NCBI GenBank assembly: GCA_963700555.1
Contig: CAVOXZ010000011.1
Coordinates: forward strand, 306,243-370,242
Reading direction: 5' to 3'
Length of the DNA: 64,000 nt
Origin: an uncultured Chloroflexia bacterium
Lineage (GTDB): Bacteria > Chloroflexota > Limnocylindria > Limnocylindrales > CSP1-4
Shown: in pieces, positions 27,732 through 44,548 of the stretch
Layout: each line of letters starts with the position of its first letter
How positions within the stretch are numbered: the first letter of the stretch is position 1
Made by a program: the position numbers and the translations under genes
Notes under the pieces: model-generated
The model's database searches: none
Told to the model about the DNA's origin: nothing
Seen by the model: only the letters and a program-made list of their open reading frames with translations

Positions 27732-27971
27732 ATGACCGATACGACCTGGAAGTGGGCCACCCTCGACGAGAAGGGCCTGGAGCTGGTCCAGGAGGCAGAG
27801 CGGACGATCGGCGCGGACGTCGTGCTCGTCTACGCGGCGGGCAGCCCGCGCACCGATGGCCGGACCCGCGAGGGACTGCGCCCCGCGACCCTCGATGAGT
27901 CCGCGCTCGAGTGCCTCCAGGGGATGGAGCAGCAGCTCGGAGCCGTCGCGGTCGCCTACCACCGGGCCTGA
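27732..27971 (+). CDS. Small hypothetical protein (79 aa)
   Basis: AGGAG ribosome-binding site 8 bp upstream of the ATG. GC3 is high. No recognisable domain. Confidence 0.45.
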   Translation: MTDTTWKWATLDEKGLELVQEAERTIGADVVLVYAAGSPRTDGRTREGLRPATLDESALECLQGMEQQLGAVAVAYHRA

Positions 27972-28015
27972 GCCCGAAGCGGGCAATCGCCCGAGACGGG
28001 CGAGCCGCGGGCACT

Positions 28016-28031
28016 CTGCCCGATCGGGCAG
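28016..28031. promoter_or_regulatory. 16-bp perfect palindrome ctgcccgatcgggcag. A second inverted repeat cgcccgAGAcgggcg lies at about 27988-28002
   Basis: Both lie in the 141-bp gap between the small ORF and the first DUF4157-like gene. Either could be a terminator hairpin or an operator. Confidence 0.4.
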
Positions 28032-28112
28032 CGTGTTCTGCCTGTCGACGGGTTCCTCGCGCCGGAGCGCGTGCCTACTCTCGGTCATCGAGACCCCTGA
28101 TCAGGGACGTCG

Positions 28113-28367
28113 ATGCCCGATCGTCGCTTCCAGCGCGAGCCCGACACGGCTTCGCGACCGCTCCCGGGTTCCGGGACCGTCCGCCGTGCCGGCTCGCCCC
28201 TCGTCGAGGCGGCCCTCGCCCTCCAGCGCCTGGCCGGCAACCGCTCATTCGCCGAGCTCGTCGGCCCCGGTGTCGGCGTGCAGCGCGAGCCGTGCACCGA
28301 CTGCCCCGAACCCGATCCGCTGGCGGCGCCGGACACAGCGCTCCCCGAGTCGGATACGCAGGGGTGA
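28113..28367 (+). CDS. Small protein (84 aa) carrying an N-terminal LQRLAGNRSF motif (DUF4157-like leader signature)
   Basis: ATG start, and GC3 of about 88 percent. The motif PLVEAALALQRLAGNRSFAELV matches the LQRxxGNxAV signature I recall at the N-terminus of DUF4157-family proteins. The stop TGA overlaps the next gene's GTG (GTGA). Confidence 0.5.
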   Translation: MPDRRFQREPDTASRPLPGSGTVRRAGSPLVEAALALQRLAGNRSFAELVGPGVGVQREPCTDCPEPDPLAAPDTALPESDTQG

Positions 28368-31300
28368 GCGCCCCGACCACCGTTGCGGCGCGGGCCCGGC
28401 AGACAGCCCGAGCCGACACGGCGAGCCCCGCTCGATCGCCGTCAGGTCCGGCCGAGGCAGCAGGCCCCAGCGAGGGCGCGTCGCTGCTCGCGGCGGACTT
28501 CGCGGGCCAGCGGTCGTCGGTCCAGGCGGCGGCCTGGGACCCGGGAACCGCGCTCGCGCCTCGTCCGCGAGTCCGTGCCGACGATGCGGGCGCACCTCCG
28601 CTCGCGCGGACCGGGGGCAGCGTCCGCTGGCTGTCGCAGCCGGCGGCGAACGCCAGGGGCCCATTGCTCGATCTGCAGCGGCTCGCGGGCAATGGCGCGG
28701 TCGCCCGGGCCCTGCAGCGTGGCCCGGCTGCACGTCCGCCGCGCGACACCACCCCGCGGGCCGGTCCTTCCGCGGAACCCAGCCTCCAGCGCCTGGAGAT
28801 CCCCGGACTGGGCGATGTCGACATCTCGGGCTACATCAGCCGCGCCCTCTCGATCCTCGGTCCAGCCGAGGAATCCCGGGACAAGGCCCGAACGGATGCG
28901 CGCACCCAGGCCGACGATGCCGCCCAGACAACGGATGCCGCGGTGGCCAGCGGCAACCAGCAGCTCGATGCGGGCAAGATCGCCGCCGAGCAGGCTGGCG
29001 AGACGGGGTTCACGGAGGCGCAGGCCGGGACCGATGCGGCTGCGACCGCCGGCAGGGATGAGACCGCTGCCGGCAAGGCGCACGGCGACCACGTGGCCCA
29101 GGAGATCAGCGGGATCGAGGGCTCGGTCGAGGGCATGGTCGACCCGCTCGCCAGGGAGGCGGGCTCCTCCGAGGGCGATGCCGGCCACCAGGCGATCGAC
29201 CAGGCCACCGAACACGCCGTCCAGCCGAGTGGGGCCGCCGACCACACGGCACCCCAGGAACCCGGGATCGAGACCGTTCCCGGCCAGCTGACCCCGACCG
29301 GTGCCGAGCCGGCCGTCTCCCACGGACCCGGGCCGCCCGGCCCTGAAGCCCCGACGCACAACGCCGGAGCGCCGGCGCCAGCGACGGAGCACGGCCCGGC
29401 CCAGGCGGGCGGAGGCGCGGACCACGGCGCCCCCGCACCCGAACCCGGCCAGGCGCCGGCGGCCGGGCCGTCCAGCCCGGCCCAGGCCCCAACCTCCGCG
29501 GTTCCCGGCGGCCAGTCGGCCACGCCTGCGGGCGGCGGGTCGCAACCCAAACCGGCGACGCCGTCGGGTGCCTCGCCGGCTGGTGCCCCGGGACCGAAGC
29601 TCGGCGCCGACGCTGGCGGGGTGGCGGCAGCCGGCGCCCCGACATGTGCGCTCGTCGAGGCCCTCAAGACCGTGACGGGCTGGCGAGACAAGGTGAAGAG
29701 CTTCGCAAGCGGCGTCCTCGCCGAGGTAGGCAAGACACAGATCCCGGGCCTTGGGATCACGGTGGCGGAGCTCGCCGGTAAGGCGAGGCAGGCCGCCCTG
29801 TGGGTCAAGAAGGGCGTCGATGGGATCAAGGACAAGGCCGTCGCCTGGGCCCACAAGAAGGCGGCCGGCATCAAGAAGACCATCACCGACAAGCTCGCCA
29901 CCGCGAAGCGGGTGATCGATGCCACGGTCACCGGGGTCAAGACCGCCATCAAGGGCGCCAGGGAGGTCGTCAGCGGTCTGTGGGACGCCGCGAGGGACGG
30001 CGTCAGCGCCACGATCCAGCAGATCCGGGTCGGCGCTGGGCGCCTTGTGCAGGCGGCGATCGGACGGGTCCGGAGTTTCGTGAACGGACTTCCAGGCCCG
30101 GTCAGGGGGCTTCTTGGTGCCGCGGGCAACCGGATCCGGTCCCTGGTCGGCGGCGATCCGCTGGGGGATGCCGCCGCGTACCTCAGTTCCAGGTGGCAGG
30201 CCGCCAAGGACGGCCTGCGCCGCGCAAAGGAGGGTGCCGTCAAGGTCGCGAAGGCCGTCGCCGACAGCACCGTCAAGGTCGCGGCCACCAAGGTCAAGGA
30301 GGCAACGACCATCGCGAAGGGCGTCGTCGATACCGCCAAGACGGTCGCCCCGTACGTCCTGGGTGTCGCCGCCCCGGGTGCGGTCGCGGTCGCCGGCGCG
30401 GCCAGGGCCGCGGCGGGCCAATGGGGCAAGCAGCTTCGCGACGGCGCCGACCGCGTCAAGAAGGCGATCAAGGGCGAGGCCTGTGAGGCGATCGGCGAGA
30501 CGGTGGGTCCCTGCCTGGACATGTACCTCCCCAAGCCCGACAACAAGGAAAAGGGGTTCGCCAAGCTCAGTGGACAGGCCGACGTCACCGTTCCGCTCCA
30601 CGAAGTCGGCGTCCCGTGCAACGTCAAGGTCGGGCGCGGGGCTTCGGTCTCGGTCGAGCGGACGTCGTCCGGGTACGGCGTGGCCGTCGATGGCGATGCG
30701 TTCGTCTTCGCCAACCTGGCGGCCGGCAAGCAGGGGACCAAGACGGAGGCCAAGGTCGAGCTGCCCACGGGCGGGATGGCCACCGTCTGGGAGCACCTCA
30801 GCGGCGTGCCGGCGGGTCCGCCGGCCGGCGGACCGGCACCTGCGACACCCGCCACGGGCGGCGCACCCGCGGCGCCGGCTCCGACAGGCCCCGCTGCAGG
30901 GGCCCCTGCTGCCCCCAAGCCCAGGGCACCCGGCCAGGCGCCCGGTGGCGGCGGCCCGGACGTCTCGGGCGAGGTTGAAGGTGGCGTCAAGGGCTCCGCG
31001 AACCTCAAGTTCTCCTTCCCGACCGCCGGCGCCACCACCTGCGAGGGTGCAGGGGGCGTGGCGTCGCTGCTCGGGGCGCTCGGGGTGGCGGCATCGCTTC
31101 CGGCGCCGCTCGACGTGCTCGCCAAGTCAGGCGTCGTCGGGGGCTGGGAGGGAAACCTGGTCTCGAACACGGTGACCATGGGAATCGCCGGTGGGGGACA
31201 GGTCGAGGTGTCCGAAGAGGGTCTCGGCGCGCTCAAGGCCCAGGGCCAGGGCGAGACATACATGACCACGGGCGTGGAGCGCCCCGACCAATCGACCCTC

Positions 31301-32002
31301 GGGGGCACGCCGACGCCGGCTGCGGGTGCGGACCCAGGAACGGCTGGCGGCGTCGACAAGAACCTGAGCGGGTCATACGCGAAACCAGCCACGGGATCCG
31401 ACCCCAACGCCCTTCGCCCGGTGCTCAAGATCGGCACCGCGGTCAAGGGGGAGGCGGCGGCTGAGCTGGCCGCCTCCAAGCTCATGCCGGCGAAGGCCGG
31501 CGTCTCGGGGTCTGCCCGGATCGAGGCCCTGCTGCTCTACGACAAGCCGGCCGACCGGATCATCCTGCAGTCCGTCACGGCGTCCGGTGAGCTCGGCGTG
31601 TCCGTCGGCGGGATCAACCCGGCCCTGGTGGCATCTCAGCTCGCGAGCCCGGTCGGTCCCGCGGCTGCGGCGAAGATCACGAGCCTCGGGCTTGCGCACA
31701 GCAACGGGTCGATCAAGGCGTCGGTCACCGGCAAGGCCGACAACCTGCAGAAGTACATCGACACCGTCGGCAAGTACCTGGGCGGCCCCCCGTCGGGAGT
31801 CTCGGCCTCGGGCCTGGCGTCGGCCGTCCGCGCCGTCCATGCCCCGGGGGACTTCTCGACCGCCGTGCAGGTCACGGCGACGCTCAGCGACCGGATCGGG
31901 ATGGAGGGCAAGGTCGAGCAGCTCGGGAAGTCGGGCGAGAAGCTGGGCGCGAGCGCGAAAGGCTCGCTCGAGATCGGCAAGGAGTACCAGCTCTACCCGT
32001 AG
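28364..32002 (+). CDS. Giant low-complexity protein of about 1,212 aa with a second LQRLAGNGAV motif near residue 100. It contains Ala/Lys amphipathic repeats, a Cys-containing module and a Pro-rich linker. Function is unknown
   Basis: The frame stays open for about 3.6 kb with coding-like GC3. The GTG at 28364 is translationally coupled to the upstream ORF. The track ORF start at 27911 is rejected because the first 450 nt overlap the upstream gene and the intergenic palindromes and translate to Arg/Pro-rich sequence. No HExxH motif is present. Confidence 0.6.
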   Translation: MSAPTTVAARARQTARADTASPARSPSGPAEAAGPSEGASLLAADFAGQRSSVQAAAWDPGTALAPRPRVRADDAGAPPLARTGGSVRWLSQPAANARGPLLDLQRLAGNGAVARALQRGPAARPPRDTTPRAGPSAEPSLQRLEIPGLGDVDISGYISRALSILGPAEESRDKARTDARTQADDAAQTTDAAVASGNQQLDAGKIAAEQAGETGFTEAQAGTDAAATAGRDETAAGKAHGDHVAQEISGIEGSVEGMVDPLAREAGSSEGDAGHQAIDQATEHAVQPSGAADHTAPQEPGIETVPGQLTPTGAEPAVSHGPGPPGPEAPTHNAGAPAPATEHGPAQAGGGADHGAPAPEPGQAPAAGPSSPAQAPTSAVPGGQSATPAGGGSQPKPATPSGASPAGAPGPKLGADAGGVAAAGAPTCALVEALKTVTGWRDKVKSFASGVLAEVGKTQIPGLGITVAELAGKARQAALWVKKGVDGIKDKAVAWAHKKAAGIKKTITDKLATAKRVIDATVTGVKTAIKGAREVVSGLWDAARDGVSATIQQIRVGAGRLVQAAIGRVRSFVNGLPGPVRGLLGAAGNRIRSLVGGDPLGDAAAYLSSRWQAAKDGLRRAKEGAVKVAKAVADSTVKVAATKVKEATTIAKGVVDTAKTVAPYVLGVAAPGAVAVAGAARAAAGQWGKQLRDGADRVKKAIKGEACEAIGETVGPCLDMYLPKPDNKEKGFAKLSGQADVTVPLHEVGVPCNVKVGRGASVSVERTSSGYGVAVDGDAFVFANLAAGKQGTKTEAKVELPTGGMATVWEHLSGVPAGPPAGGPAPATPATGGAPAAPAPTGPAAGAPAAPKPRAPGQAPGGGGPDVSGEVEGGVKGSANLKFSFPTAGATTCEGAGGVASLLGALGVAASLPAPLDVLAKSGVVGGWEGNLVSNTVTMGIAGGGQVEVSEEGLGALKAQGQGETYMTTGVERPDQSTLGGTPTPAAGADPGTAGGVDKNLSGSYAKPATGSDPNALRPVLKIGTAVKGEAAAELAASKLMPAKAGVSGSARIEALLLYDKPADRIILQSVTASGELGVSVGGINPALVASQLASPVGPAAAAKITSLGLAHSNGSIKASVTGKADNLQKYIDTVGKYLGGPPSGVSASGLASAVRAVHAPGDFSTAVQVTATLSDRIGMEGKVEQLGKSGEKLGASAKGSLEIGKEYQLYP

Positions 32003-32091
32003 GTGACGATCCGACCCGCATCCCGGCCTCCGCGTTGAAACTCGATACATCCAGGGCGCACGTTGTGGCGACGATCGGTGTAGGATGTCGT

Positions 32092-32115
32092 GACCGACCG
32101 ACCGGTCGGTCGGTC
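32092..32115. promoter_or_regulatory. 24-bp perfect palindrome gaccgaccgaccggtcggtcggtc, 24 bp upstream of tetR. Candidate TetR operator
   Basis: The palindrome is exact and built from gacc repeats. It lies between a possible -35 (TTGAAA at 32035) and the tetR start at 32139. Confidence 0.55.
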
Positions 32116-32138
32116 GCCCTGCGAGGACCCACCTGCCC

Positions 32139-32801
32139 ATGAGCCGCCCCGATCCCGCCGAGCAGAGCCGGAGCCGCCGCGAGCGCATCCTCGATGCCGC
32201 GTTTCATGCCTTTGCGACGCGCGGCTACCGCGAGACGGCCGTCGACGACATCGCGGGCGCGGCGGAGACCTCCAAGGGGGGGATCTACTTCCACTTCCCG
32301 ACCAAGGAGGCGATCTTCCGCGAGCTGATGGGCTCGACGGCGGACAAGCTCGTCGCCAAGGTGGAGCGGTCGGTCGCCCTTGAGACGGAGCCGGTGGCGC
32401 GCGCCGAGGCGGCGATCCGGACGGTGCTGGCCACGTTTGCCGGACATCGGACCATGGCCCGCCTGCTGTTCCTCGACACGGTCGGGGCGGGCCGGATCTT
32501 CCAGGCCGAGGCCAACGCGCTCCACGAGCGGTTCGCACGGCTCATCCAGGGGTACCTCGACGAGGCCGTGGCCGCTGGCGCTGCCCCGCCGATGGATACC
32601 CGGATCACGAGCATCGCCTGGTTCGGGGCGATCAACGAGGTGGTCGGGCGCTGGCTGCTCGCGGACAAGCCGGGCCGCCTCGAGGATGCCTACCCGGCCT
32701 TGCGGGCGGCCCTGCTCCGGTCGGCTGGCGTGCCCGCCGAGCGGATCGGCGACGTCCCTGCGCCTCGCTCGGACTGGGACTTCCCGGAGCCCCAGCCGTG
32801 A
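32139..32801 (+). CDS. TetR-family transcriptional regulator. First gene of the men operon
   Basis: HTH RRERILDAAFHAFATRGYRETAVDDIAGAAETSKGGIYFHFPTKEAIF. The stop overlaps the menF start (ATGA). Confidence 0.85.
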   Translation: MSRPDPAEQSRSRRERILDAAFHAFATRGYRETAVDDIAGAAETSKGGIYFHFPTKEAIFRELMGSTADKLVAKVERSVALETEPVARAEAAIRTVLATFAGHRTMARLLFLDTVGAGRIFQAEANALHERFARLIQGYLDEAVAAGAAPPMDTRITSIAWFGAINEVVGRWLLADKPGRLEDAYPALRAALLRSAGVPAERIGDVPAPRSDWDFPEPQP

Positions 32802-34255
32802 CAACCCTGCAGCGGCCCGCGGTCCGGCCCGAGGAGGAGGCCGCGGCCCTCGGTGAGCGGCTGGCCGGGCTGCACGACGCGGCCCCCCGGGCGTCCACGA
32901 CCTTCCTGTCCGCGACGGTTCCATCGGGCGGGGTCGATCCGATCTCGCTGGTTGCGGCCGCGATCGAGACCGATCTCGAGGTGGCGCTCTGGCTGCGCCC
33001 ATCGGAAGGCCTCGCCCTGGTGGGCGTCGGGCGGGCCTGGGCCGTGGAGCCGGCCGGCCCGGACCGGTTCCACGAGGCTGAGGCCGGCTGGCGAGCCGCC
33101 CTGGCCTCGGCGGCGATCGACCGGGGTGGTTCCGGCGTGCCGGCCGCAGGCCCGGTGCTGGTCGGTGCGCTGGGGTTCGCGGGGCGCGTGCCGGAGGCTG
33201 GCGATCCGTGGGGTCCGTTCGGCGCCAGCTCGCTCGTGCTGCCCGAGCTCATGCTCGCGGTCACACCTCACGGGGCGTTCCTGACCGGCTCGGTCGCCGG
33301 ACCGGGGACGGCCGCGGGGATCCGGGCGCTCGAGCGCCGCTGGGAGCGCCTGGCCGCACGGGCCCGAGCGCTTGCTCCGAACCCCAACGGGATGGTCGCG
33401 ATGCCCGTCTTCGCGCCGCTCACCGTTGATGGCGAGCAGCCGACGCACGAGCACTGGCGCCGCCTGGTGGGCATGTTCTCGGGCGCCGTGGGCCGCGGGC
33501 GGATCGACAAGGTGGTCCTTGCCCGCCGGGTCGACCTTCGCTCGCCGATGGCGCTTGACGTGCCGAACGCCCTCCGCCGCCTCGCCGCGAGCGCACCGGA
33601 GAGCACGACGTACGCCTTCCGGCGCGACGGCCGGATCTTCCTGGGCGCCACGCCGGAGCGGCTCGTGCAGACGGAGGGCCGCACGTTCCGGACCGTGGCG
33701 GTCGCGGGCACGATCCGGCGCGGCGCCGACGCCGGGGAGGACGAGCAGCTGGGACGGGCGCTGCTCGCGTCCGAGAAGGACCGCGAGGAGCACGCCATCG
33801 TCGTGGACTCCATCCGGGCCCTGTTGCGTCCCGTGGCGGACAGCCTCTCGGTGGCTCCGGAACCCGGGGTCATGACCCTGCGCTTCGTCCAGCACCTGGT
33901 GACCGAGATTGCCGGGACCGTGCCCGAGGGCCGCGGGCTGCTCGCGCTCGGTGAGCGGCTCCACCCGACGCCCGCGGTCGGCGGCGAGCCACGTGAGGTG
34001 GCGCTTGCCCTGCTCGATGAGCACGAGGGCTTCGACCGCGGGTGGTACGCGGGCCCCGTCGGCTGGCTCGGGGCCGATGGCGATGGCGAGCTGTGCGTCG
34101 CCCTCCGGTGCGGGATCGTGGACCGGACGCGAGCCACGCTGTTCGCCGGTTGCGGGATCGTCGCGGATTCGGATCCTGACCTCGAGTGGGAGGAGTCCCG
34201 GATCAAGCTGCGAGCGGTGATCAGCTCGCTGGGCATTCCCGGGGACGAGCGATGA
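32798..34255 (+). CDS. menF: Isochorismate synthase (menaquinone-specific)
   Basis: Chorismate-binding domain motifs (GATPERLV, SEKDREEHAIVVD, GWYAGPVGW, FAGCGIVADSDPDLEWEE). Confidence 0.85.
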   Translation: MTTLQRPAVRPEEEAAALGERLAGLHDAAPRASTTFLSATVPSGGVDPISLVAAAIETDLEVALWLRPSEGLALVGVGRAWAVEPAGPDRFHEAEAGWRAALASAAIDRGGSGVPAAGPVLVGALGFAGRVPEAGDPWGPFGASSLVLPELMLAVTPHGAFLTGSVAGPGTAAGIRALERRWERLAARARALAPNPNGMVAMPVFAPLTVDGEQPTHEHWRRLVGMFSGAVGRGRIDKVVLARRVDLRSPMALDVPNALRRLAASAPESTTYAFRRDGRIFLGATPERLVQTEGRTFRTVAVAGTIRRGADAGEDEQLGRALLASEKDREEHAIVVDSIRALLRPVADSLSVAPEPGVMTLRFVQHLVTEIAGTVPEGRGLLALGERLHPTPAVGGEPREVALALLDEHEGFDRGWYAGPVGWLGADGDGELCVALRCGIVDRTRATLFAGCGIVADSDPDLEWEESRIKLRAVISSLGIPGDER

Positions 34256-36018
34256 CGCGAGCGGACGGGCTGCTGGCCTTCACCGATGAGCTGGTGGCGG
34301 CCGGCGTCCGCGACGCGGTGGTGTGCCCGGGCTCGCGCTCGACCCCGATGGCGCTGGCCCTGCGGACGGCGCCGGGGCTCCGGGTCCGGGTGCTGTACGA
34401 CGAGCGGGCGGCGGCCTTCTTCGCGCTGGGCATGGCCCGGACCTCGAGGCGGCCCGTGGCGCTCCTGTCCACGTCGGGCACGGCCGCCGTCGAGTTCGCG
34501 CCGGCGGTCGTGGAGGCGCAGCTGTCCCGGGTGCCGATGGTGGTGCTCACCGCGGACCGGCCGCCCGAGCTGCGTGACCGCGGCGCGCCGCAGACGATCG
34601 ACCAGGTCCATCTCTACGGCCGGGCGGCCAAGTGGTTCGCGGAGCTGCCGCTGCTCGATGGGGCGGACGCGACGCTGGCCCACTGGCGCTGGGTTGCGGG
34701 CCGGGCGGTGGCCGTGGCCGCCGAGGGTCCGGCGGGACCGGTGCATGTGAACGTGCCGTTCCGGGAACCGCTGCTCCCGGACGCGTCTCTGTCCCGTGAT
34801 CGCCTGGAGCCGGCGTACCCGTTTGTAACCGTGGTTCCCGGCCGACGGACGCTGGACGGCGCTTCGCTGGACGCGCTGGTGGCTCGCCTCGCGGGGGCAC
34901 GGCGGGGCCTGATCGTCGCCGGTCCGGACGACGACCCGGTCCTTCCCGCGGCCCTGGTCTCGCTGGCGCGGGTGACCGGCTTCCCGATCCTCGCCGACCC
35001 GCTGTCCGGGCTGCGGACCGGCCCCCACGACCGATCGATGGTCATCGCCAGGGCGGACCAGCTCTGCCGCCGTGGCCCGTGGATGGACGGGCTCGCTCCG
35101 GACCTGGTGATCCGGACCGGCGCCATGCCCACGTCCAAGCCGATCCTGGAGGTGCTCGCGCGGACGCGCCCGGGACTGATCGTGCTCGATGGGGACGCAG
35201 GCTGGCGCGAGGCGGCACTGATCCCGGCCACGTTCGTCCACGCGGATGCGGCGGCGACCGTCGAGGCCCTGACCCTGCAGCTCGCGCGTCAGCCACCCGG
35301 GACGGATCCTGCGTGGGCCCGGGCCTGGCGCGCCGCCGACGACGCGGTGTCGGCGGCGATGGACGGCTGGCTGTCGGAGCTTGGCGAACCGTTCGAGGGT
35401 GCCCCCTGGCCCGCGCTGGCCGATGCGCTCCCGGACGGCGCGACGCTCTGGGCAGCGAGCTCGATGCCGGTCCGCGATCTCGACGCCTGGCTGCCGTCGA
35501 CCGACCGTGCCATCACCGTCCGGTCCAACCGTGGCGCGAACGGCATCGACGGCGTGGTGTCCACGGCGCTCGGATCGGCCGCGGTGGCGGAGGGGCCGGT
35601 CGCCGCGGTCGTGGGCGACATCGCGTTCCTCCACGACCTCAACGCCCTCGTCGCGGCGCGGCTCCACGACCTGTCGGCCACGATCCTGCTCGTGAACAAC
35701 GACGGGGGCGGGATCTTCTCGTTCCTGCCCCAGGCCCGGCCCGGGGTGCCGGTGGAGGGCTCGGGTCTGCCGGAGCACTACGAGGAGCTGTTCGGGACCC
35801 CGCACGGGATCGATGTCGGGCCGGCGGTCGAGGCGCTCGGCGGCGAGCACCGGGTCCTGGAGCCGGGCGACCTCGCCCCCGCGATCCGCGAGTCCATCGG
35901 GCGGCCGGGGATCCAGGTCCTGGAGCTGCGAACGGACCGGGCGCGGAACCTCGAGCTCCACCGCGAGGTCGCCGCCGTCGCCGCGGACGCCCTCGCTGGG
36001 CTGGGAATCCTCCCGTGA
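34252..36018 (+). CDS. menD: 2-succinyl-5-enolpyruvyl-6-hydroxy-3-cyclohexene-1-carboxylate synthase (SEPHCHC synthase)
   Basis: ThDP enzyme with N-terminal VVCPGSRSTPMALAL and a C-terminal ThDP-binding motif (GDIAFLHDLNAL...NNDGGGIFSFLP). ATGA overlap with menF. Confidence 0.9.
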   Translation: MTRADGLLAFTDELVAAGVRDAVVCPGSRSTPMALALRTAPGLRVRVLYDERAAAFFALGMARTSRRPVALLSTSGTAAVEFAPAVVEAQLSRVPMVVLTADRPPELRDRGAPQTIDQVHLYGRAAKWFAELPLLDGADATLAHWRWVAGRAVAVAAEGPAGPVHVNVPFREPLLPDASLSRDRLEPAYPFVTVVPGRRTLDGASLDALVARLAGARRGLIVAGPDDDPVLPAALVSLARVTGFPILADPLSGLRTGPHDRSMVIARADQLCRRGPWMDGLAPDLVIRTGAMPTSKPILEVLARTRPGLIVLDGDAGWREAALIPATFVHADAAATVEALTLQLARQPPGTDPAWARAWRAADDAVSAAMDGWLSELGEPFEGAPWPALADALPDGATLWAASSMPVRDLDAWLPSTDRAITVRSNRGANGIDGVVSTALGSAAVAEGPVAAVVGDIAFLHDLNALVAARLHDLSATILLVNNDGGGIFSFLPQARPGVPVEGSGLPEHYEELFGTPHGIDVGPAVEALGGEHRVLEPGDLAPAIRESIGRPGIQVLELRTDRARNLELHREVAAVAADALAGLGILP

Positions 36019-36839
36019 CGACGGTCCGGAGACCCCCGGCAACCGGATGGTCCGTCACCGAGGGTGGAGCGGGCCAGCCGCTGGTGCTCCTCCACGGCTT
36101 CACCGGGTCGGCGGCGTCCTGGGAGGAGCACTTCGACTCGTTCGCGGACCGGCATCGCGTGATCGCCCCGGATCTCCCGGGACACGGCGGGACTCCGGAG
36201 ACCAGCGCCCTCGACGGCATGACGGTCGAGGCCACCGCGGACGCCCTCGCCACGCTCCTCGCCGAGCTGGGCGCGGCCCCGGCGATCGTCCTCGGCTACT
36301 CCCTCGGGGCCCGGATCGCGCTGCGACTCGCCATCGAGCACCCGGCATCCGTCGGGCGCCTCGTGCTCGAGAGCCCGTCGGCCGGCATCGCGGACCCCGG
36401 TGATCGAGCCGCCCGCCGCGCGGCGGACGCGGCGCTTGCCGACCGCCTCGAGCGCGACGGCATCGCCGGCTTCATCTCCGCGTGGGAGCGCAGCCCGGTC
36501 TTCGCCAGCCACGCCGCCGCCAATCCGCAGCTCCTCGCCCGGCAGCGAGCGATCCGCCTGGCCTCGAACGCTGCGGGGCTCGCAGCCAGTCTCCGGGCCG
36601 CCGGCCAGGGGTCCATGGAGCCGCTCCACGACCGGCTGGGCGAGGTGACGGCGCCCACCCTCGTCATCGCCGGTGCCCTCGACGCCGTCGGCCGCCCCCG
36701 CGCGGAGGAGGTCGCGAACGGGATCCCCGGCGCCCGCCTCGAGATCCTCGACGCCACCGGCCACACCCCGCACCTCGAATCGCCCGACGCCTTCCGCCGT
36801 CTCGTGCTCGACTTCGCCCCGGAGGACCCCGCCGCATGA
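36015..36839 (+). CDS. menH: SHCHC synthase MenH (alpha/beta hydrolase)
   Basis: [10 protein letters not shown], nucleophile elbow GYSLGARIA, and a C-terminal His (ATGHTPHLE). GTGA overlap with menD. The track ORF N-terminus at 35079 is out-of-frame overlap with menD. Confidence 0.8.
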
Positions 36840-37666
36840 CCACGCCCATCACCTGGACCCCCGTCGTCGAGTACCGCGACATCCGGTACGAGCACTCCGG
36901 CACCGGCATCGCCAAGGTCACCATCAACCGCCCCGAGGTCCGCAACGCGTTCCGGCCGCAGACCGTGCGCGAGCTGATCGACGCCTTCGCCCGGATCCGG
37001 GACGACGCCTCGGTCGGCTGCGTCCTGCTCACTGGCGAGGGCGACAAGGCGTTCTGCAGCGGCGGCGACCAGACGTACAAGAGCCATGACGGCGGGTACC
37101 TCGACACGGACGGCATCGCCCGGCTCAACGTGCTCGACCTCCAGCGCCAGATCCGGAGTCTGCCGATCCCGGTGATCGCGCTCGTCAACGGCTACGCCAT
37201 CGGCGGCGGGCATGTCCTCCACATCGTGTGCGACATGTCGATCGCGTCCGACAACGCGATCTTCGGCCAGGTCGGACCGCGGGTCGGCAGCTTCGACGCC
37301 GGGTTCGGGGTAGGCCTGCTCGCGCGGCTGGTCGGCGACAAGCGGGCCAAGGAGATCTGGTTCCTGTGCCGCCAGTACACCGCGGAGGAGGCGCTGGCCA
37401 TGAACCTCGTGAACAGGGTCGTGCCGCTCCCCGATCTCGAGGCCGAGGGCGTGGCGTGGGCCGACGAGATCCTGGACATGAGCCCGACCGCGATCCGGTT
37501 CCTCAAGTCGGCGTTCCTGGTCGCCACCGACGGCCTGGCCGGGCTCCAGGAGTTCGCGGGCAACACCACGGGCCTCTACTACACGACCGACGAGGCGCAC
37601 GAGGGCTCGACGGCGTTCCTCGAGAAGCGCAAGCCGGACTACCGCAAGTACCCGCGCCGCCCGTGA
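36836..37666 (+). CDS. menB: 1,4-dihydroxy-2-naphthoyl-CoA synthase
   Basis: Crotonase fold with MenB-specific motifs (YEDIRYE-like [49 protein letters not shown]). Confidence 0.92.
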
Positions 37667-38649
37667 ACGCCGACCCCGTGCCCCCCGCCGTCCTCGGATC
37701 GCGGCCGTCCGCCGCTTCGATCTGGGTGCATGCCGCCCGCCCGCGGACGCTGCCCGCCGCGGTCGCCGGTGTGGTCGTGGGCCTCGGCGCCGGCCTGGCC
37801 ACCGGGGCTCCGTTCCGTCCCGACACGGCGATCGCGTGCGTGCTGGTCGCGCTGCTCCTCCAGGTGCTCGCGAACTTCGCCAACGACCTGTCCGACCACC
37901 GGCGGGGCGCCGACACGCCCGACCGGGCGGGCCCCGTGCGCGTCGCCGCCGCCGGGCTGGTGACCGAGCGACAGCTCGAGGTGGCGATCGGGATCACGAT
38001 CGCGCTGGCGGGCGTCGTCGGGCTGTATCTCGTCTGGGTGGGCGGCGCGGTGCTGCTCGCGCTGGGTGTGCTGGCGGTGGTCGCCGCGCTCGCGTACACG
38101 GGTGGCCCGTTCCCGTATGGCTACCGGGCGCTGGGCGAGCTGTTCGTGTTCATCTTCTTCGGCCTGGTGGCGGTGGCCGGCAGCGCGTACCTCCAGGCAC
38201 TCCGGTTCGACGGCCTGTTCCTGGTGGTCTCGGTGCCGCCGGGTGCGCTGATCACCGCGATCCTCGTCGTCAACAACCTGCGCGACATCCCGACCGACAC
38301 CGCGGCCGGCAAGCGGACCCTGGCGGTGGTCATCGGGAAGCGGCGCACCCAGGCGGAGTTCGGGGCGCTGCTCGGCGTCGCGTACTTCGTGCCCGCGATG
38401 CTGTTCCTCGCGTTCCTCGGCGGCTGGACGCCGTCGGGGGGCGAGGCGCCGCTGACCCCGTTCGTGCTGCTGCCGATCCTGACCCTGCCGATGACCTCCT
38501 CGCTGCTGGCGAGGGTGCGGGGATTCACCGAGCCCCGGGAGCTCAACCTGGTGCTGGCCGGGACGGCGAAGCTGTCGCTGGCGTTCGGGTTGCTGTTCGG
38601 GCTGGGTCTGGCGCTGGCGGGCTGGGTTCCGGCGGGGCTCGGGTCCTGA
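37663..38649 (+). CDS. menA: 1,4-dihydroxy-2-naphthoate polyprenyltransferase (UbiA family)
   Basis: Polytopic membrane protein with an Asp-rich motif [11 protein letters not shown] and a second motif [13 protein letters not shown] overlap with menB. Confidence 0.85.
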
Positions 38650-39731
38650 TGGGCACGGTCCGCTTCCACCGGGTGCGGGTCCCGTTCCGCGTCCCGTTCG
38701 CGACCGCCGCCGGGTCCTGGACGACGCGCGAATCGTGGCTGGTGCGCATCGCCGATGACGAGGGGCGTGCGGGCTGGGGGGAGGCGGTGCTCGAGGACGA
38801 GGCCGACATCCCGGTGCTCGAGGCGCTCCTCGGTGACCTGGCGGCGGTGGGCCTTGCTCCCTCACCGGCGCTCGTCTCGCGGGCCGGAGGAGCCGGCCAG
38901 GCGTTCCGGGCGGCATTCGACGGGGCGCGGCTGGACGTCCTCGCGCAGGGTCCCCAGGCGACCGCTGCCCGGCCTCCCAGCGTCGGCGTCAACGCGGTCC
39001 TCGCCGCGACCAACGTCGAGGCGGCTGCGGCGGCCGCCGCAGCGGCGGTGGACGCCGGCTTTCGCACCCTCAAGATCAAGGCCGCGCCCGGCGACACGAC
39101 CGCGACCCTGGTGGCGCGGGTGGCGGCCGTGCGGGCCGCGGCCGGGGACCAGGCCGCGATCCGGCTGGACATGAACGGCACCTGGAAGCTCGAGGCAGCG
39201 GTCGAGCGGCTGCGGGCGCTGGCCGGCTTCGACCTGGCCTACGTGGAGCAGCCCCTCCCGCCGAAGGATCTCGCCGGCGCCGCGGCACTGCGCGGGCGGA
39301 CGGGGGTCCCGGTCGCGGCGGACGAGGCGGTCGACTCGGTCGAAGGGGCCAGGGCCGTGCTTGCGGCCGGCGCGGCCGACATCCTGGTCGTCAAGCCGGC
39401 ACGGGTCGGAGGGCCGGTGCCGGTGGCGGAGATCGCCTCGCTGGCGGCGGAGCTGGACGTGCCGGTCGTGGTGAGCTCGATGTTCGAGACGGGGGTGGGC
39501 CTGGCGGTGGCGCTCGCATGTGCCTCGGTCCTTCCGGATGTGCCCGGGTGGCCGGCGATCGAGCGCGACCACGGCCTTGCCACGGCGGACCTGCTCGAGG
39601 ACGACCTCATCCTCGCGCCATTGGCCGTGACCGCCGGGCGCATGCAGGCGCCGTTCGATCCGGGCTGCGGGGGCCTGGGGGTGACGGTGGACGAGGCGGC
39701 CCTGGATCGCTACGGCGTGGACGACGAGTGA
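38649..39731 (+). CDS. menC: o-succinylbenzoate synthase (enolase superfamily)
   Basis: Enolase-superfamily barrel (KIKAAPGD, LDMNGTW, YVEQPL, VVKPARVGG). TGATG overlap with menA. Confidence 0.8.
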   Translation: MGTVRFHRVRVPFRVPFATAAGSWTTRESWLVRIADDEGRAGWGEAVLEDEADIPVLEALLGDLAAVGLAPSPALVSRAGGAGQAFRAAFDGARLDVLAQGPQATAARPPSVGVNAVLAATNVEAAAAAAAAAVDAGFRTLKIKAAPGDTTATLVARVAAVRAAAGDQAAIRLDMNGTWKLEAAVERLRALAGFDLAYVEQPLPPKDLAGAAALRGRTGVPVAADEAVDSVEGARAVLAAGAADILVVKPARVGGPVPVAEIASLAAELDVPVVVSSMFETGVGLAVALACASVLPDVPGWPAIERDHGLATADLLEDDLILAPLAVTAGRMQAPFDPGCGGLGVTVDEAALDRYGVDDE

Positions 39732-41944
39732 CGGCGTGGTTCGCTGACGAGCGTCTGGCGGCCATCGCTCGCGACGCCGGCAATTCGCCGGCGATCGTGG
39801 ACGGCAGCGACGAGCTGACGTGGCGCGAGCTCGACCGCCGGGCATCCGCGGCCGCGACCCTGGTGTCGGTGGGGGGCGTGGGCTCGGGCGAGCGCGTGGC
39901 CCTGCCGGGCGAGGCGTCGGTTGATGCCGTCGCCGCGATCCTCGGTGTCCTGCGTGCGGGGGCGGTGGCGGCGCCCGTGCCGTCGGGCCTCACCGCTCGC
40001 GAGCTGGCCGCTGCGACGAGGTCGCTCGACCCGGCGCTCGTCCTGCGCGCGGTCGACCTCGCGGGCAGGGATGCGTCCGGGGCCACGACGCCTGGGGCAG
40101 CCGGGCGTGATCCCGAGGGCCCCGCGGTGGTGGTCGGGACGTCGGGGACCACCGGCGCGCCGCGGGGCGTGGTGCTCTCGCACCGGGCGATGGCCGCGAG
40201 CGCCGACTCCTGGATGACCGTGCTGCCACCGGCCACGGGCTGGGTGCTGGCCCTCGAGCTGGCACACGTCGCCGGCCTCGGGATCCTGTGGCGGGCGCTC
40301 CGCGACGGAGTCCCGATCCGGATCGTGCCCCGCGGCGACCCGGCCGCCCTGCTCCGCGCCCTGGGGTCCGAGCCGGCTCCCAGTCACGTGTCGCTCGTGC
40401 CCGCCCAGCTCGCCCGCCTCCTCGACATCGCCCCCGGCCCGCCTCCGCGCACGCTCCGGGCGGTGCTCCTCGGCGGCGGCCCGATCCCGCCTGCGCTCGT
40501 GACCACGGCGCTCGGCGCGGGCTGGCCGATCGTGCCCACCTACGGGCTCTCGGAGGCCGCGTCCGGCGCCACTGCGCTCGACCCGGAGGAGGCCTGGGAT
40601 CACCCGGGTTCCGCCGGGCGACCGCTGCCCGGTGTCCACCTCGCCATCGCGGACGAGGGGCCGGACGGTGTCGGGGAGATCGTCCTGCAGTCCACCGCCC
40701 GCTGCTCCGGCTACCTGGGCGACGGGCCGGCGCCCGCGGCGCCCGCGGCGCCTGATGACCCAATCCGCACCGGCGACCTCGGCCGGCTCGACGGCGACGG
40801 CCGCCTGTTCGTCGTGGACCGGCGCCTCGACCGGATCGTCCGCGGCGGGGAGAACATCGCGCCGGCCGAGGTCGAGGCCGTCATCCTCGAGCACCTGGCC
40901 ATCGTCGACGCGGCCGTGGTCGCCCGGCCCGATGCGGAGCTGGGCCAGGTCCCGGTCGCGGCGATCGTGCTCCGCCCCGGCTCCCCGGACCCCGGGGACG
41001 AGGCGCTCGCCGCCCACGCCCGCACGTCGCTGGCCGGGTTCAAGGTCCCGGCAGCCTGGATCCGTCTCGACGTGCTGCCCCGGACCGCCGGCGGCAAGCT
41101 TCGCCGGGGGGCCGTCCGCGCGCTGCTCGCCGGGGAGCCCGCCGGCCAGCTGGCCAGGCCCGGCGGCGATGCGATCGGCTGGCGCGTCACGGGTACCGGA
41201 TCGCGGCACGTGCTCCTGCTGCACGGGACGCTCAGCACGGCGAAGCAGCTGGATCGACTGGCGCAGGCACTCTCGGAGCCCGGGGACATCACGGTCCACG
41301 CCCTTGACCGGCGCGGCAGCGGCTCGAGCCGCCTGTCGGCCCCTCGCCCACTCGACGTCGCCACCCATGTCGACGACGTCCGCGCCTACCTCGACGCCCG
41401 GGCCATCGATCGTGTCGACGTCGCGGGCATGAGCTTCGGGGGAGCGCTCGCGCTCGAGCTCGCGGCGCGGCTTCCGGACAGGGTGCGCGCCGTCGTCGCG
41501 TACGAGCCGCCGTATGGTCCTGCCGCCGACCCCGAGACCCTCGCCTGGTTCCAGGGCCTCGCCGCCGAGACCGCGCGCGCCCACGCCGAACGTGGCCCGG
41601 CCGGCGCGGCGGAGACGTTCCTGCGCGCGGTCGCAGGTGACGCGGCCTGGGACCGGCTCCCCGCGCGGGGTCGGCTGTTCCTCGAGGAGGAAGGCGACGG
41701 CGCCCTGGCCGACGCGGGCCTGACCGGCCTGGACCCCGACGGCCTTGGCCGGATTGCGTGCCCCGTCGCGATCCTGACCGGCGGCGCGTCGGAGCCGTTC
41801 TACGCCCCGATCGCCGATGCCCTCGCCGCGCGGATCCCGGGCGCTCGCCGCGATACCCTCGAAGGCCTCACGCATCCCGCGCCCATCACGCAGCCGGGCA
41901 TCATGGCCGCCGCCATCCGAGCCTGCCTGGAGCCTTCTGAGTGA
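39728..41944 (+). CDS. menE: o-succinylbenzoate-CoA ligase (MenE), fused to a C-terminal alpha/beta-hydrolase domain of about 290 aa
   Basis: The AMP-binding domain shows VGTSGTTGAPRGV, TYGLSEAASG, GDLGRLDGDGRLFVVDRRLDRIVRGGENI and PRTAGGKLRR. The C-terminal domain has LLLHGT, a GxSxG elbow (AGMSFGG) and a distal His (LTHPAPI). Confidence 0.8.
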   Translation: MTAWFADERLAAIARDAGNSPAIVDGSDELTWRELDRRASAAATLVSVGGVGSGERVALPGEASVDAVAAILGVLRAGAVAAPVPSGLTARELAAATRSLDPALVLRAVDLAGRDASGATTPGAAGRDPEGPAVVVGTSGTTGAPRGVVLSHRAMAASADSWMTVLPPATGWVLALELAHVAGLGILWRALRDGVPIRIVPRGDPAALLRALGSEPAPSHVSLVPAQLARLLDIAPGPPPRTLRAVLLGGGPIPPALVTTALGAGWPIVPTYGLSEAASGATALDPEEAWDHPGSAGRPLPGVHLAIADEGPDGVGEIVLQSTARCSGYLGDGPAPAAPAAPDDPIRTGDLGRLDGDGRLFVVDRRLDRIVRGGENIAPAEVEAVILEHLAIVDAAVVARPDAELGQVPVAAIVLRPGSPDPGDEALAAHARTSLAGFKVPAAWIRLDVLPRTAGGKLRRGAVRALLAGEPAGQLARPGGDAIGWRVTGTGSRHVLLLHGTLSTAKQLDRLAQALSEPGDITVHALDRRGSGSSRLSAPRPLDVATHVDDVRAYLDARAIDRVDVAGMSFGGALALELAARLPDRVRAVVAYEPPYGPAADPETLAWFQGLAAETARAHAERGPAGAAETFLRAVAGDAAWDRLPARGRLFLEEEGDGALADAGLTGLDPDGLGRIACPVAILTGGASEPFYAPIADALAARIPGARRDTLEGLTHPAPITQPGIMAAAIRACLEPSE

Positions 41945-42702
41945 CCGCCAGCCTGCCGCCCGACCACACGCCCACCGGTGCCTCCACCGGTGCCGGCAAT
42001 GCCGCCGCGCCGCCCGAGGTCCAGGTCATGTTCGACCGGATCGCACGCCGGTACGACCTGATGAACCTGCTGATCTCCGCGTTCCAGGAGCCTCGCTGGC
42101 GGCGACGCCTCGTTGCGAGGGCGGGACTCCGGCCCGGTGGCGCCGCGCTCGATGTCGCCTCCGGGACGGGCAAGGTCGCAGCCGACCTTCACGCGCAGGC
42201 CCAGCCGTTCGGGCGGGTGCTGGGCGTGGACCTGTCGCCCGGGATGACGGCCGTGGCCCAGGAGCGATACGCGAGTCGGCCCGGTCTCAGCTACGTGGTG
42301 GGGGACGCGCTCGCCCTGCCGACCGAGGACGGCACGTTCGACGCCGCCACGATCGCGTTCGGGATGCGCAACCTGCCCGACTACCGGCGCGGGTTCGCGG
42401 AGATGGCCCGCTCGGTCCGGCCGGGGGGCAAGGTGCTGTGCCTGGAGATCGCGCGTCCGAAGTCGCGCCTGGCCCGGTTCATGCGCTGGTGGTTCGACCG
42501 GGTCGTGCCCCTGATCGGGAAGGTCGCGGGGCACGGCGCCGCATACGGGTACCTGGTCAGGAGCGTGCAGGCCTATCCGGGGCCCGAACGGATCGCGGAG
42601 ATCATGGGCGAGGCCGGGCTGGTCGACGTGACCTGGCAGGGAATGACCGGCGGCATCGTCACCCTGCACGAGGGGACGGTCCCGATGGAGGCCGGTCGAT
42701 GA
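41941..42702 (+). CDS. menG: Demethylmenaquinone methyltransferase (UbiE/MenG family)
   Basis: VQVMFDRIARRYDLMNLLISAFQEPRWRRR, SAM motif LDVASGTGKVA, and an FGMRN motif. Confidence 0.85.
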   Translation: MTASLPPDHTPTGASTGAGNAAAPPEVQVMFDRIARRYDLMNLLISAFQEPRWRRRLVARAGLRPGGAALDVASGTGKVAADLHAQAQPFGRVLGVDLSPGMTAVAQERYASRPGLSYVVGDALALPTEDGTFDAATIAFGMRNLPDYRRGFAEMARSVRPGGKVLCLEIARPKSRLARFMRWWFDRVVPLIGKVAGHGAAYGYLVRSVQAYPGPERIAEIMGEAGLVDVTWQGMTGGIVTLHEGTVPMEAGR

Positions 42703-43034
42703 TCGTGTGCGTGCCGGTGGGCCCCGGAGGCGACGTGGACCCGCGATGGGGGCGGGCGTCGCGCCTGGCGGTTGCGAGGCTGGCGGGCGGGAGGATCGTC
42801 AGCTGGGAGGAGCACGACGTCGCGTGGGACGCGCTCCACGACATCGGTACCGAGGGCGGTCACCACGCCCGCGTCGCCCGGTTCCTCCACGACCACGGCG
42901 TGCAGGTGGTGGTGGCCGGCCACATGGGACCACCCATGGTGCAGATGCTGGGCAAGATGCGGATCGTCGCCAAGCTGGGTGTCGAGGGGGATGCGCGCGC
43001 GGCGGTGGAGTCGGTGGCAGCCCTGGAGAGCTAG
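42699..43034 (+). CDS. NifX/NifB-family (dinitrogenase FeMo-cofactor biosynthesis-like) small protein, terminal gene of the men operon
   Basis: 111 aa. IVCVPVG...GHHARVARFLHDHGVQVVVAGHMGPPMVQMLGKMRIVA matches the NifX/NafY/NifB-C fold pattern (VAVP..G..V..HFG....LL...gv.vvi.g.iG..a...L...GI.v). ATGA overlap with menG. Confidence 0.6.
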   Translation: MIVCVPVGPGGDVDPRWGRASRLAVARLAGGRIVSWEEHDVAWDALHDIGTEGGHHARVARFLHDHGVQVVVAGHMGPPMVQMLGKMRIVAKLGVEGDARAAVESVAALES

Positions 43035-43037
43035 CTC

Positions 43038-43058
43038 CGGCACGGGTCTCGCGTGCCG
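43038..43058 (+). terminator. Hairpin cggcacg-ggtctcg-cgtgccg, 3 bp after the men-operon terminal stop
   Basis: 7-bp perfect stem with a 7-nt loop, followed by a T-containing stretch (ataggcggttg). Confidence 0.45.
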
Positions 43059-43192
43059 ATAGGCGGTTGCGCGGTCTCCGGCCCAGCCGCGGCACCCCGC
43101 ATTTCCGGCAAGTCACCACCGACTGGCCGGGCCGACCACCACGCAGAGCTCGTCACCGCCCCGAGCGTGGGCGTGCGGCGAGCGCCAGTTCG

Positions 43193-44506: not shown

Positions 44507-44512
44507 CACTGC

Positions 44513-44541
44513 TTGACATGTTCTGGCGCCCCCTTTATCCT
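44513..44541 (+). promoter_or_regulatory. Candidate leaderless promoter TTGACA-17-TATCCT. It ends 7 nt before the antitoxin ATG
   Basis: TTGACA at 44513-44518 and TATCCT at 44536-44541. The ATG at 44549 has no ribosome-binding site, which is consistent with a leaderless transcript. Confidence 0.45.
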
Positions 44542-44548
44542 AGCGGCG

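Follow-up and report, generated by a model that had tools for sequence, protein, structure and literature searches.

A conserved palindrome as the predicted operator of a TetR-type regulator heading the menaquinone operon of Limnocylindrales

A perfect 24-bp palindrome lies just ahead of a gene for a TetR-type regulator in a 64,000-nucleotide stretch of DNA (the window) from an uncultured bacterium of the order Limnocylindrales, phylum Chloroflexota. The regulator gene, here called tetR, is followed by the genes for menaquinone biosynthesis (men). Comparison with related genomes makes it very probable that the adjacent TetR-type repressor binds at the palindrome. The full account which we favour, and consider likely, is that TetR binds the palindrome and represses the tetR-men mRNA, and hence itself, until it is released by a ligand. 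The elements on which this account is built are the following.

32082–32087, plus strand: -10-like hexamer TAGGAT, 4 nt before the palindrome, from cross-species alignment.
32092–32115, no strand assigned: predicted operator, a perfect palindrome, with a conserved footprint at 32093–32114 and an invariant core ACCGACCGGTCGGT at 32097–32110.
32123–32128, plus strand: likely ribosome-binding site GAGGAC, 10 nt before the ATG, as read from the sequence.
32139–32801, plus strand: tetR, a 220-amino-acid TetR-family regulator with an N-terminal helix-turn-helix (HTH) and a TetR_C_24 ligand domain, from Pfam, homologues and an AlphaFold2 (AF2) model.

The palindrome GACCGACCGACCGGTCGGTCGGTC has the arms GACCGACCGACC|GGTCGGTCGGTC and takes the repeat form (GACC)3(GGTC)3. 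It gave a single match in the window with up to 3 mismatches tolerated, it appeared in 0 of 100 shuffles of the window and it is the longest of the window's perfect palindromes. The initial annotation had pointed to an exact 24-bp palindrome ahead of a TetR gene, and this is what is found, at a place unique in the window. It had also placed the palindrome just upstream of the tetR start, which is correct, at a distance of 24 nt, which is not; the gap from the end of the palindrome to the ATG at 32139 is 23 nt. When this window, of 72% GC, was shuffled 300 times by a first-order Markov model, 5% of the shuffles had some perfect palindrome whose arms reach 12 nt or more. The bare palindrome is therefore only moderately improbable and the weight of the argument rests on its conservation, not on the palindrome alone. 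The second-longest perfect palindrome of the window, GATGGCGACCCGGGTCGCCATC, has 22 bp and lies at 7322–7343 near the boundary of two minus-strand open reading frames (ORFs), and two palindromes of 20 bp are found within coding sequence at 30815–30834 and 39024–39043.

Conservation was examined in a scan of one genome per GTDB species, which gave 570 relatives. The best 80 loci of the 570 were taken with their flanks, and all of them come from Limnocylindrales or Chloroflexota metagenome-assembled genomes (MAGs). (Labels such as L001 are our own, for loci and contigs.) The genes tetR-menF-menD-menH-menB-menA have the same order and orientation in all of the 80 loci that are long enough to show it, and the tetR stop overlaps the menF start in a 4-nt xTGA in 81/81 sequences, that is, the 80 loci and the window. 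The ORF of 1363 amino acids directly upstream of the promoter (27911–32002), for which no Pfam or NCBIfam match was found, is conserved in the closest relative L001 alone, at 69% identity. Because the synteny and the overlap are invariant and the upstream gene is not conserved, tetR is taken as the integral first cistron of the men operon. The earlier description of tetR as the first, translationally coupled gene of a complete men operon is borne out by these results.

In 79 of the 80 loci, as in the window, the motif ACCGAC-NN-GTCGGT precedes tetR with at most 1 mismatch, so that the advice to look for the palindrome in related genomes gave a positive result with L074 as a spacing variant. 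When 80 sequences of the site were aligned on its centre, the information content was ~2 bits per position from -11 to +11 and ~0 in the flanks. The 22-bp footprint has the consensus AACCGACCGAC-yr-GTCGGTCGGTT and the core ACCGACyrGTCGGT. Distant loci have the outer left register changed to AACAAACCGAC or the outer right one to GTCGGTTTGTT, and they retain the terminal AAC/GTT and the inner ACCGAC/GTCGGT. Each of the 80 aligned sequences has a TAnnnT hexamer 2–12 nt upstream of operator position -11, most often as TAGGAT (29 times), TACGAT (14 times) or TAGCAT (12 times), and it is by this alignment across species alone that the -10-like hexamer of the window was recognised. Purine-rich motifs resembling GAGGAC precede the tetR start in the relatives. 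By its position and conservation the site has the character of a palindromic operator in the regulator's own promoter, as is typical of TetR proteins, with binding as the predicted part. In L074 the half-sites are unchanged but the spacer has 6 nt in place of 2 (AACCGAC-TAGCGA-GTCGGTT); this site, ~40–60 nt upstream of the TetR start (6001), represents a natural variant of the operator spacing.

The conservation bears directly on the reading that the palindrome is a chance product or a dispersed repeat element (REP/MITE-like) with no regulatory role. The 5% of Markov shuffles with comparable palindromes speak for it, as does a 14-nt direct repeat of the right arm inside tetR at 32367–32380. 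However, the window contains the site once only, the ~958 kb of the 80 neighbourhoods have no further exact core, and the site is conserved at the same promoter in 80/80 species and in three other classes. For these reasons we rejected the repeat-element reading, and of all the alternatives weighed here this one has the least probability, being close to negligible. A repeated genomic element unrelated to the regulator had been named beforehand as the finding that would overturn the operator proposal; it is excluded by the single copy and by the quinone contexts of the site in metagenomes described below. The internal 14-mer was also considered as a second half-operator and rejected. It encodes ERSVA and is found in the window only; a GTCGGT/ACCGAC half-site is absent within ~30 nt of the equivalent position in 73 of 80 orthologues, and the repeat is therefore a coding coincidence.

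A palindrome between a promoter and a start codon could also act as a nucleic-acid hairpin, either as a stem-loop in the 5' untranslated region which stabilises or attenuates the men mRNA or as a DNA cruciform. Transcribed whole, the palindrome folds a 12-bp stem, and the 73-nt leader has a minimum free energy of -29.1 kcal/mol (z = -2.1). However, none of the 75 distinct sequences shows a compensatory double change at any of the 11 conserved pairs, and changes at positions -8/-9 break the pairing in 23–26 of the 75 and are uncompensated. This indicates selection on the sequence of each arm, as for recognition by a protein. Further, the stem sequence is invariant across loci whose proteins are 68–96% identical while the flanks are random, the left arm begins 2–4 nt after the -10 in many loci and so lies upstream of the likely transcript start, and the same sequence is a proven protein operator in the PaaR and PfmR systems discussed below. 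The RNA hairpin was rejected for the absent covariation despite the stable predicted stem, and we regard any hairpin function as very improbable.

The operator reading is strengthened by more distant Chloroflexota. A tblastn search of plasmids, in which the remaining matches were mostly TetRs of resistance-nodulation-division (RND) efflux systems, found the locus on the megaplasmid of Thermomicrobium roseum DSM 5159. The TetR encoded there, TRD_RS10405, is 44% identical to that of the window, its gene overlaps an annotated isochorismate synthase gene by 4 nt and is followed by menD and menH, and the site ATCCGACTGACGCGTCGGTCGGAT stands directly after TACACT and 12 nt before the ATG. TetRs from metagenomes assigned to Nitrolancea, Sphaerobacter, Thermomicrobiaceae and Chloroflexia are 44–57% identical to that of the window, and those of Dehalococcoidia/SAR202 38–41%. 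Kallotenue papyrolyticum has TTGACG-17 nt-TATACT-6 nt-AACCGACGCGTCGGTCGGTT-GAGGAG-ATG followed by tetR-menF-D-H-B-C-E. In the complete genome of Ca. Lucifugimonas marina, which belongs to Dehalococcoidia/SAR202, the order is tetR-UbiA-UbiX-UbiD-radical SAM(CofH_C)-VitK2_biosynth(PF02621)-radical SAM, which is a menaquinone operon of the futalosine pathway, and the site CAAACCGACTGGTCGGTCGGT lies 9 nt after TAGAAT. Metagenome versions with tetR-UbiA/UbiX/UbiD have their best matches to MqnP and SCO4490-type decarboxylase models, under the curated cut-offs. Near-consensus promoters stand directly before the site in Kallotenue (TTGACG-17-TATACT), Lucifugimonas (TTGATT...TAGAAT) and L099 (TTGACC-17-TAAACT).

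Public metagenome contigs were scanned for the 22-mer ACCGACCGACNNGTCGGTCGGT, which occurs in at least 120 stretches; the counts given here are among the matches listed. Genes on these contigs were called by a method based on the GC content of third codon positions, and spurious high-GC ORFs (L107, L114) were disregarded. An adjacent TetR start followed by classical men genes was found 51 times, and a TetR followed by UbiA-like (MqnP), UbiX and UbiD genes 10 times. In 36 cases a TetR gene was followed by the end of the contig, in 13 the contig end was too near for judgement, 3 sites stood before men genes with no TetR between and 7 had other contexts. The 22-mer thus co-occurs with a TetR gene in at least 99 of the 120 and has a quinone-biosynthesis context in 64 of the 71 informative cases. 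The suggestion that the palindrome is a candidate operator of the TetR, made at first for the window, now has behind it a footprint after a -10-like hexamer, this co-occurrence with TetR and men genes, and a core shared with the PaaR and PfmR operators.

The regulator itself belongs to the TetR family, having a TetR-type HTH (PF00440, 58.5 bits; cut-off 24) and an all-helical C-terminal ligand and dimerisation domain (PF17932 TetR_C_24, 31.2 bits; cut-off 26.4). The AF2 model shows nine to ten helices in the TetR fold with a predicted local distance difference test (pLDDT) score of 83, and a fold search with it returned 549 PDB matches of TetR fold at E<=0.001. The protein collection contained 1363 homologues. 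The top 120 are 77–97% identical, and the named entries among these are Candidatus Limnocylindrales, phylum Chloroflexota. The best PDB match, by sequence as well as by fold, is FadR of B. subtilis (sequence: E 8.5e-13, residues 8–178 covered, identity 22–24%; fold: template modelling score 0.75 to query and 0.87–0.89 to target). Among solved structures the closest are FadR of B. subtilis, both with stearoyl-coenzyme A (CoA) and without it, B. halodurans FadR, MbdR, PfmR, FasR and T. thermophilus FadR, most of them TetRs that respond to acyl-CoA. The segment SKGGxYFHFPxK of the HTH does not vary among men- and mqn-linked orthologues that are 36–96% identical.

From these observations the following mechanism is proposed. 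One or two TetR homodimers would bind the 22–24-bp site AACCGACCGAC-yr-GTCGGTCGGTT through the SKGGxYFHFPxK HTH. Since the site starts a few bases past the -10 and would cover the expected transcription start, bound TetR would block initiation or promoter escape. Repression would act on a single polycistronic, translationally coupled mRNA, tetR-menFDHBACE-menG, and TetR would limit its own synthesis as well. Binding of a small molecule in the C-terminal FadR/PaaR-like (TetR_C_24) domain would detach the repressor from the site and so turn menaquinone synthesis on. The nested ACCGAC registers would offer room for two dimers, the alternative being one dimer with extended contacts.

The same site might be used in other ways by the adjacent TetR, as an activator or dual regulator like FasR or as a repressor which needs its ligand as co-repressor, as in FabR and DesT. 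FasR is an activator and is among the fold neighbours of the window TetR, and co-repression of a biosynthetic operon by its end product would give homeostasis. Against this, the site lies downstream of the -10 and over the expected start in all lineages, which is the position of a repressor, and PaaR and PfmR, which share the operator, are repressors, the former released by its ligand. We therefore hold activation or co-repression to be unlikely.

Several observations weigh against the proposed ligand-released repression by the adjacent TetR. The source is an uncultured lineage represented by a MAG, and binding by its TetR, the transcription start and the effect on expression are predicted. 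A consensus promoter and terminator scan of 31500–33000 found no sigma-70-like promoter or terminator, and a convincing -35 is not visible in the promoter region of the window. If a biosynthetic operon were simply derepressed by its own product as the ligand, this would be positive feedback. The window TetR scores 70.2 bits against the NCBIfam FadR equivalog NF053878, whose cut-off is 200, and is 28% identical to PfmR, so that transfer of a ligand by homology is unsafe. Residues of the ligand domain are moderately conserved between men- and mqn-linked orthologues and the shared positions are scattered. L096, L112 and L168 carry the 22-mer before men genes without a TetR between, and the identical 22-mer also stands beside other TetR_C_24 paralogues with oxygenase and beta-oxidation-like genes. 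Binding by the window TetR, repression as opposed to activation, release by a ligand, the stoichiometry and the ligand are what we infer from the comparisons.

The last two observations in this list imply that a paralogue could share or own the site. The palindrome would then be a genuine operator bound mainly or also by a paralogous TetR_C_24 protein (PaaR/PfmR-like) encoded elsewhere, with the adjacent TetR as a co-regulator or acting on another target. Besides the three men loci that have no adjacent TetR, this is favoured by the identical 22-mer beside TetR_C_24 genes whose products are 26–32% identical to the window TetR (L140, L147, L149, L157, L172) and by Thermus, where two TetRs, PfmR and SbtR, use shared sites (PMC7022988). 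However, at least 97 of the 120 matches listed have a TetR of the orthologous type which starts within ~200 nt and points away from the site, the HTH is invariant where the operator is invariant even among orthologues 36–96% identical, and PfmR provides a proven example of autoregulation by an operon's first gene. A paralogue as the main or additional owner of the site has, in our estimation, a small probability, and binding by the adjacent TetR is preferred.

Some details of these sites are given for completeness. Among the seven other contexts at least 5 have a further TetR-type gene adjoining the site or close to it (L114, L154, L111, L134, L172). The 22-mer beside TetR_C_24 paralogues is located at L111 3343–3364, L157 455–476, L172 5641–5662 and L145 8478–8499, and the neighbours encode an AurF-like diiron protein, a 2Fe-2S/flavin adenine dinucleotide (ferredoxin) reductase, 3-hydroxyacyl-CoA dehydrogenase and enoyl-CoA hydratases, or an APH-type kinase. 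Such loci probably represent regulons of acyl-CoA catabolism that use the same operator word. In L096 the 22-mer (602–623) lies between a divergent ubiE/menG-type methyltransferase gene and menF-menD, an arrangement which suggests regulation in trans and a regulon extending beyond one operon. A short conserved motif CACGTT(G/T) occurs at 32058–32064 of the window, ~13–15 nt upstream of the -10-like hexamer, and also in the closest relatives L001, L006-L008, L012, L016, L018 and L024, which lack a canonical -35. In more distant loci its place is taken by TTGACN with the usual spacing. The motif may be an unusual -35 or the site of a second factor.

The nature of the ligand can be narrowed to some extent. 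QsrR and YodB sense quinones through thiols, and the window TetR has no cysteine in its sequence; thiol-based sensing of this style was rejected and covalent quinone sensing is therefore out. The initial annotation had suggested a quinone or naphthoate intermediate as a possible ligand. The family resemblance of TetR points instead to a ligand of the CoA-thioester or acyl-CoA type, and the classical pathway could supply o-succinylbenzoyl-CoA (OSB-CoA) and 1,4-dihydroxy-2-naphthoyl-CoA (DHNA-CoA). We nevertheless rank first a metabolite common to the classical and futalosine routes, such as chorismate, a polyprenyl diphosphate or demethyl-/menaquinone, because the same module is found on operons of the futalosine route, in which CoA intermediates do not occur. 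Second come the aromatic CoA thioesters OSB-CoA or DHNA-CoA, which would apply to the men-linked branch only, and third long-chain acyl-CoA. The divergent ligand domains are compatible with both a CoA-thioester and a shared metabolite. A bolder version, which we put forward tentatively and think rather doubtful, is that TetR regulates the menaquinone pool throughout the phylum and independently of the pathway, sensing a molecule common to both routes, and that the duplicated 4-nt register recruits two dimers cooperatively in the manner of QacR. If true, this TetR would be the first dedicated transcriptional sensor controlling menaquinone synthesis.

The operon which TetR is predicted to control has the order tetR-menF-D-H-B-A-C-E-G. 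By Pfam domains the region 32798–42702 is complete for the classical (o-succinylbenzoate) pathway, with MenF, MenD, MenH, MenB, MenA, MenC, MenE and MenG all represented by the genes below.

32798–34255, plus strand: menF, isochorismate synthase (PF00425, 256.6 bits); its GTG start overlaps the tetR stop (GTGA, 32798–32801).
34252–36018, plus strand: menD, 2-succinyl-5-enolpyruvyl-6-hydroxy-3-cyclohexene-1-carboxylate (SEPHCHC) synthase, a thiamine diphosphate (ThDP) enzyme with TPP_enzyme_N and TPP_enzyme_C domains; ATGA overlap with menF; conserved in the loci of the relatives.
36015–36839, plus strand: menH-like alpha/beta hydrolase, from Pfam; the orthologous position in T. roseum is annotated menH.
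36836–37666, plus strand: menB, DHNA-CoA synthase of crotonase fold (ECH_1, 241 bits); 79–95% identity across loci.
37663–38649, plus strand: menA, UbiA-family prenyltransferase, from Pfam and conservation across loci.
38649–39731, plus strand: menC, o-succinylbenzoate synthase of the enolase superfamily (MR_MLE_C).
39728–41944, plus strand: menE, OSB-CoA ligase with a C-terminal alpha/beta-hydrolase domain (AMP-binding, AMP-binding_C and Abhydrolase_1 in a single ORF).
41941–42702, plus strand: menG/ubiE, demethylmenaquinone methyltransferase family (PF01209, 183.9 bits), the last clearly coupled gene.

Overlaps are present at all eight junctions from tetR to menG, seven of 4 nt and one, menA/menC, of 1 nt, and they point to a nine-gene, translationally coupled operon that is unusually tight. 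The menE product scores 281.6 bits against TIGR01923, under its cut-off of 330. A separate gene for a DHNA-CoA thioesterase was not identified in the operon. The alpha/beta-hydrolase domain fused to menE is additional to the separate menH-like hydrolase earlier in the operon and might be a candidate source of the thioesterase step. A gene for an MFS_3 (EntS-like) transporter (42707–44506) follows menG after a 4-nt gap. MFS_3 genes are also found near the tetR-mqn operon of Ca. Lucifugimonas marina (L203 486–3142) and the tetR-men operon of Kallotenue (L206 3495–4769), so a recurring association with tetR-menaquinone operons is possible. Downstream of the transporter gene lies a PIN-domain gene (44992–45444), and for the short ORF just before it (44503–44913) no family match was found; that the two form a toxin-antitoxin pair is only a guess.

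Searches of the open-access literature found no men operon with a described TetR regulator or a dedicated repressor, and no work on the menaquinone of Limnocylindria. To our knowledge, control of the menaquinone pathway is otherwise described mainly at the level of the enzymes. As far as that literature shows, it is a well-supported prediction from the sequence comparisons that the men operon is a new target for a TetR/operator pair. A TetR at the head of a men operon had been called uncommon by the initial annotation. Relative to model organisms this is so, but across several classes of Chloroflexota the arrangement is the rule. The pair is kept in at least 4 Chloroflexota lineages, including the abundant soil Limnocylindria and marine SAR202, and is attached to both of the non-homologous menaquinone pathways. 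It therefore offers a testable handle on the supply of respiratory quinones in a large and mostly uncultured phylum, for which Thermomicrobium roseum DSM 5159, Kallotenue papyrolyticum and Ca. Lucifugimonas marina are cultured carriers. TetR and its site would also be a ready-made repressor/operator part, and the ligand, once found, could give a biosensor for engineering of the vitamin-K2 pathway. The word ACCGACCGGTCGGT appears to be an ancient operator which TetR paralogues have reused for phenylacetate, fatty-acid and quinone metabolism.

The window TetR may be compared with several known systems. FadR (YsiA) of B. subtilis (PDB 1vi0, 3whb, 3whc) is its closest sequence and fold match, and other acyl-CoA-sensing TetRs (T. 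thermophilus FadR, FasR, MbdR, KstR2) have the same C-terminal domain family, TetR_C_24, with TetR_C_4 in relatives. However, the identity to B. subtilis FadR is low, the equivalog cut-off is failed, FadR regulates beta-oxidation and its operator sequence differs from the site in the window. BioQ, for biotin in Corynebacterium and Mycobacterium, and MftR, for mycofactocin, are TetR repressors with a palindromic operator governing a cofactor cluster and their own gene. They belong to other subfamilies, with other operators and pathways, and neither acts on quinones.

QacR, which binds a long operator as two dimers, is mentioned for comparison in the reports on PaaR and PfmR (PMC2770484, PMC7022988). 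The site described here resembles the QacR type in being a 22–24-bp palindrome with two nested ACCGAC registers per arm which would cover +1. It is unlike that type in that the outer left register is degenerate (AACAAACCGAC) in distant loci, and a single dimer with extended contacts is equally possible.

The core ACCGACCGGTCGGT at 32097–32110 was found, by a full-text search for it, to be identical to the cores of the PaaR and PfmR operators, and the window at these positions carries the word ACCGACCGGTCGGT(T) / TACCGACCGNTNGGTN of the PaaR/PfmR operator class. PaaR (BCAL0210) of B. cenocepacia requires the operator ACCGACCGGTCGGTT for negative control, as supported by mutagenesis, and its binding and its release by phenylacetyl-CoA were observed in electrophoretic mobility shift assays (PMC2770484, PMC9493321). 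Compared by operator and description, the two systems have in common the identical 14–15-bp core, a dual overlapping inverted repeat, a location in the core promoter and a TetR-type repressor, which in PaaR is released by an aromatic acyl-CoA. PaaR differs in coming from a proteobacterium, in regulating catabolic paa clusters from a separate transcription unit and in having its sites between -35 and -10. No paa genes adjoin the site in the window or the 80 loci, where the genes predicted to be regulated are men genes, and the window TetR is therefore not PaaR but would only work like it.

PfmR (TTHB023, PDB 3vpr) of T. thermophilus binds TACCGACCGNTNGGTN-like sites in the -10/+1 region with nM affinity and represses in vitro (PMC7022988). 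The pfmR locus on pTT27 was located through a BLAST match of the operator. Its near-consensus promoter reads TTGACG...TAAGGT-gaacc-TACCGACCGGTCGGTG-ggct-ATG, and pfmR is first in an operon and overlaps an acyl-CoA dehydrogenase gene. As proposed for the window, the repressor is thus encoded by the first gene of its own operon, with the operator TACCGACCGGTCGGTG between the -10 and the start codon and binding sites that span +1, and PfmR is among both the sequence and the fold neighbours of the window TetR. In contrast, the two proteins are distant in sequence, PfmR controls acyl-CoA dehydrogenase, thioesterase and phenylacetate/fatty-acid genes and not quinone synthesis, and its site is a 16-mer whereas that of the Chloroflexota has 22–24 bp with a duplicated 4-nt register. 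Taken together, these comparisons make it a well-supported prediction that the TetR and its operator form an autoregulated switch like those of PaaR and PfmR, with no new mechanism, which is wired to menaquinone synthesis.

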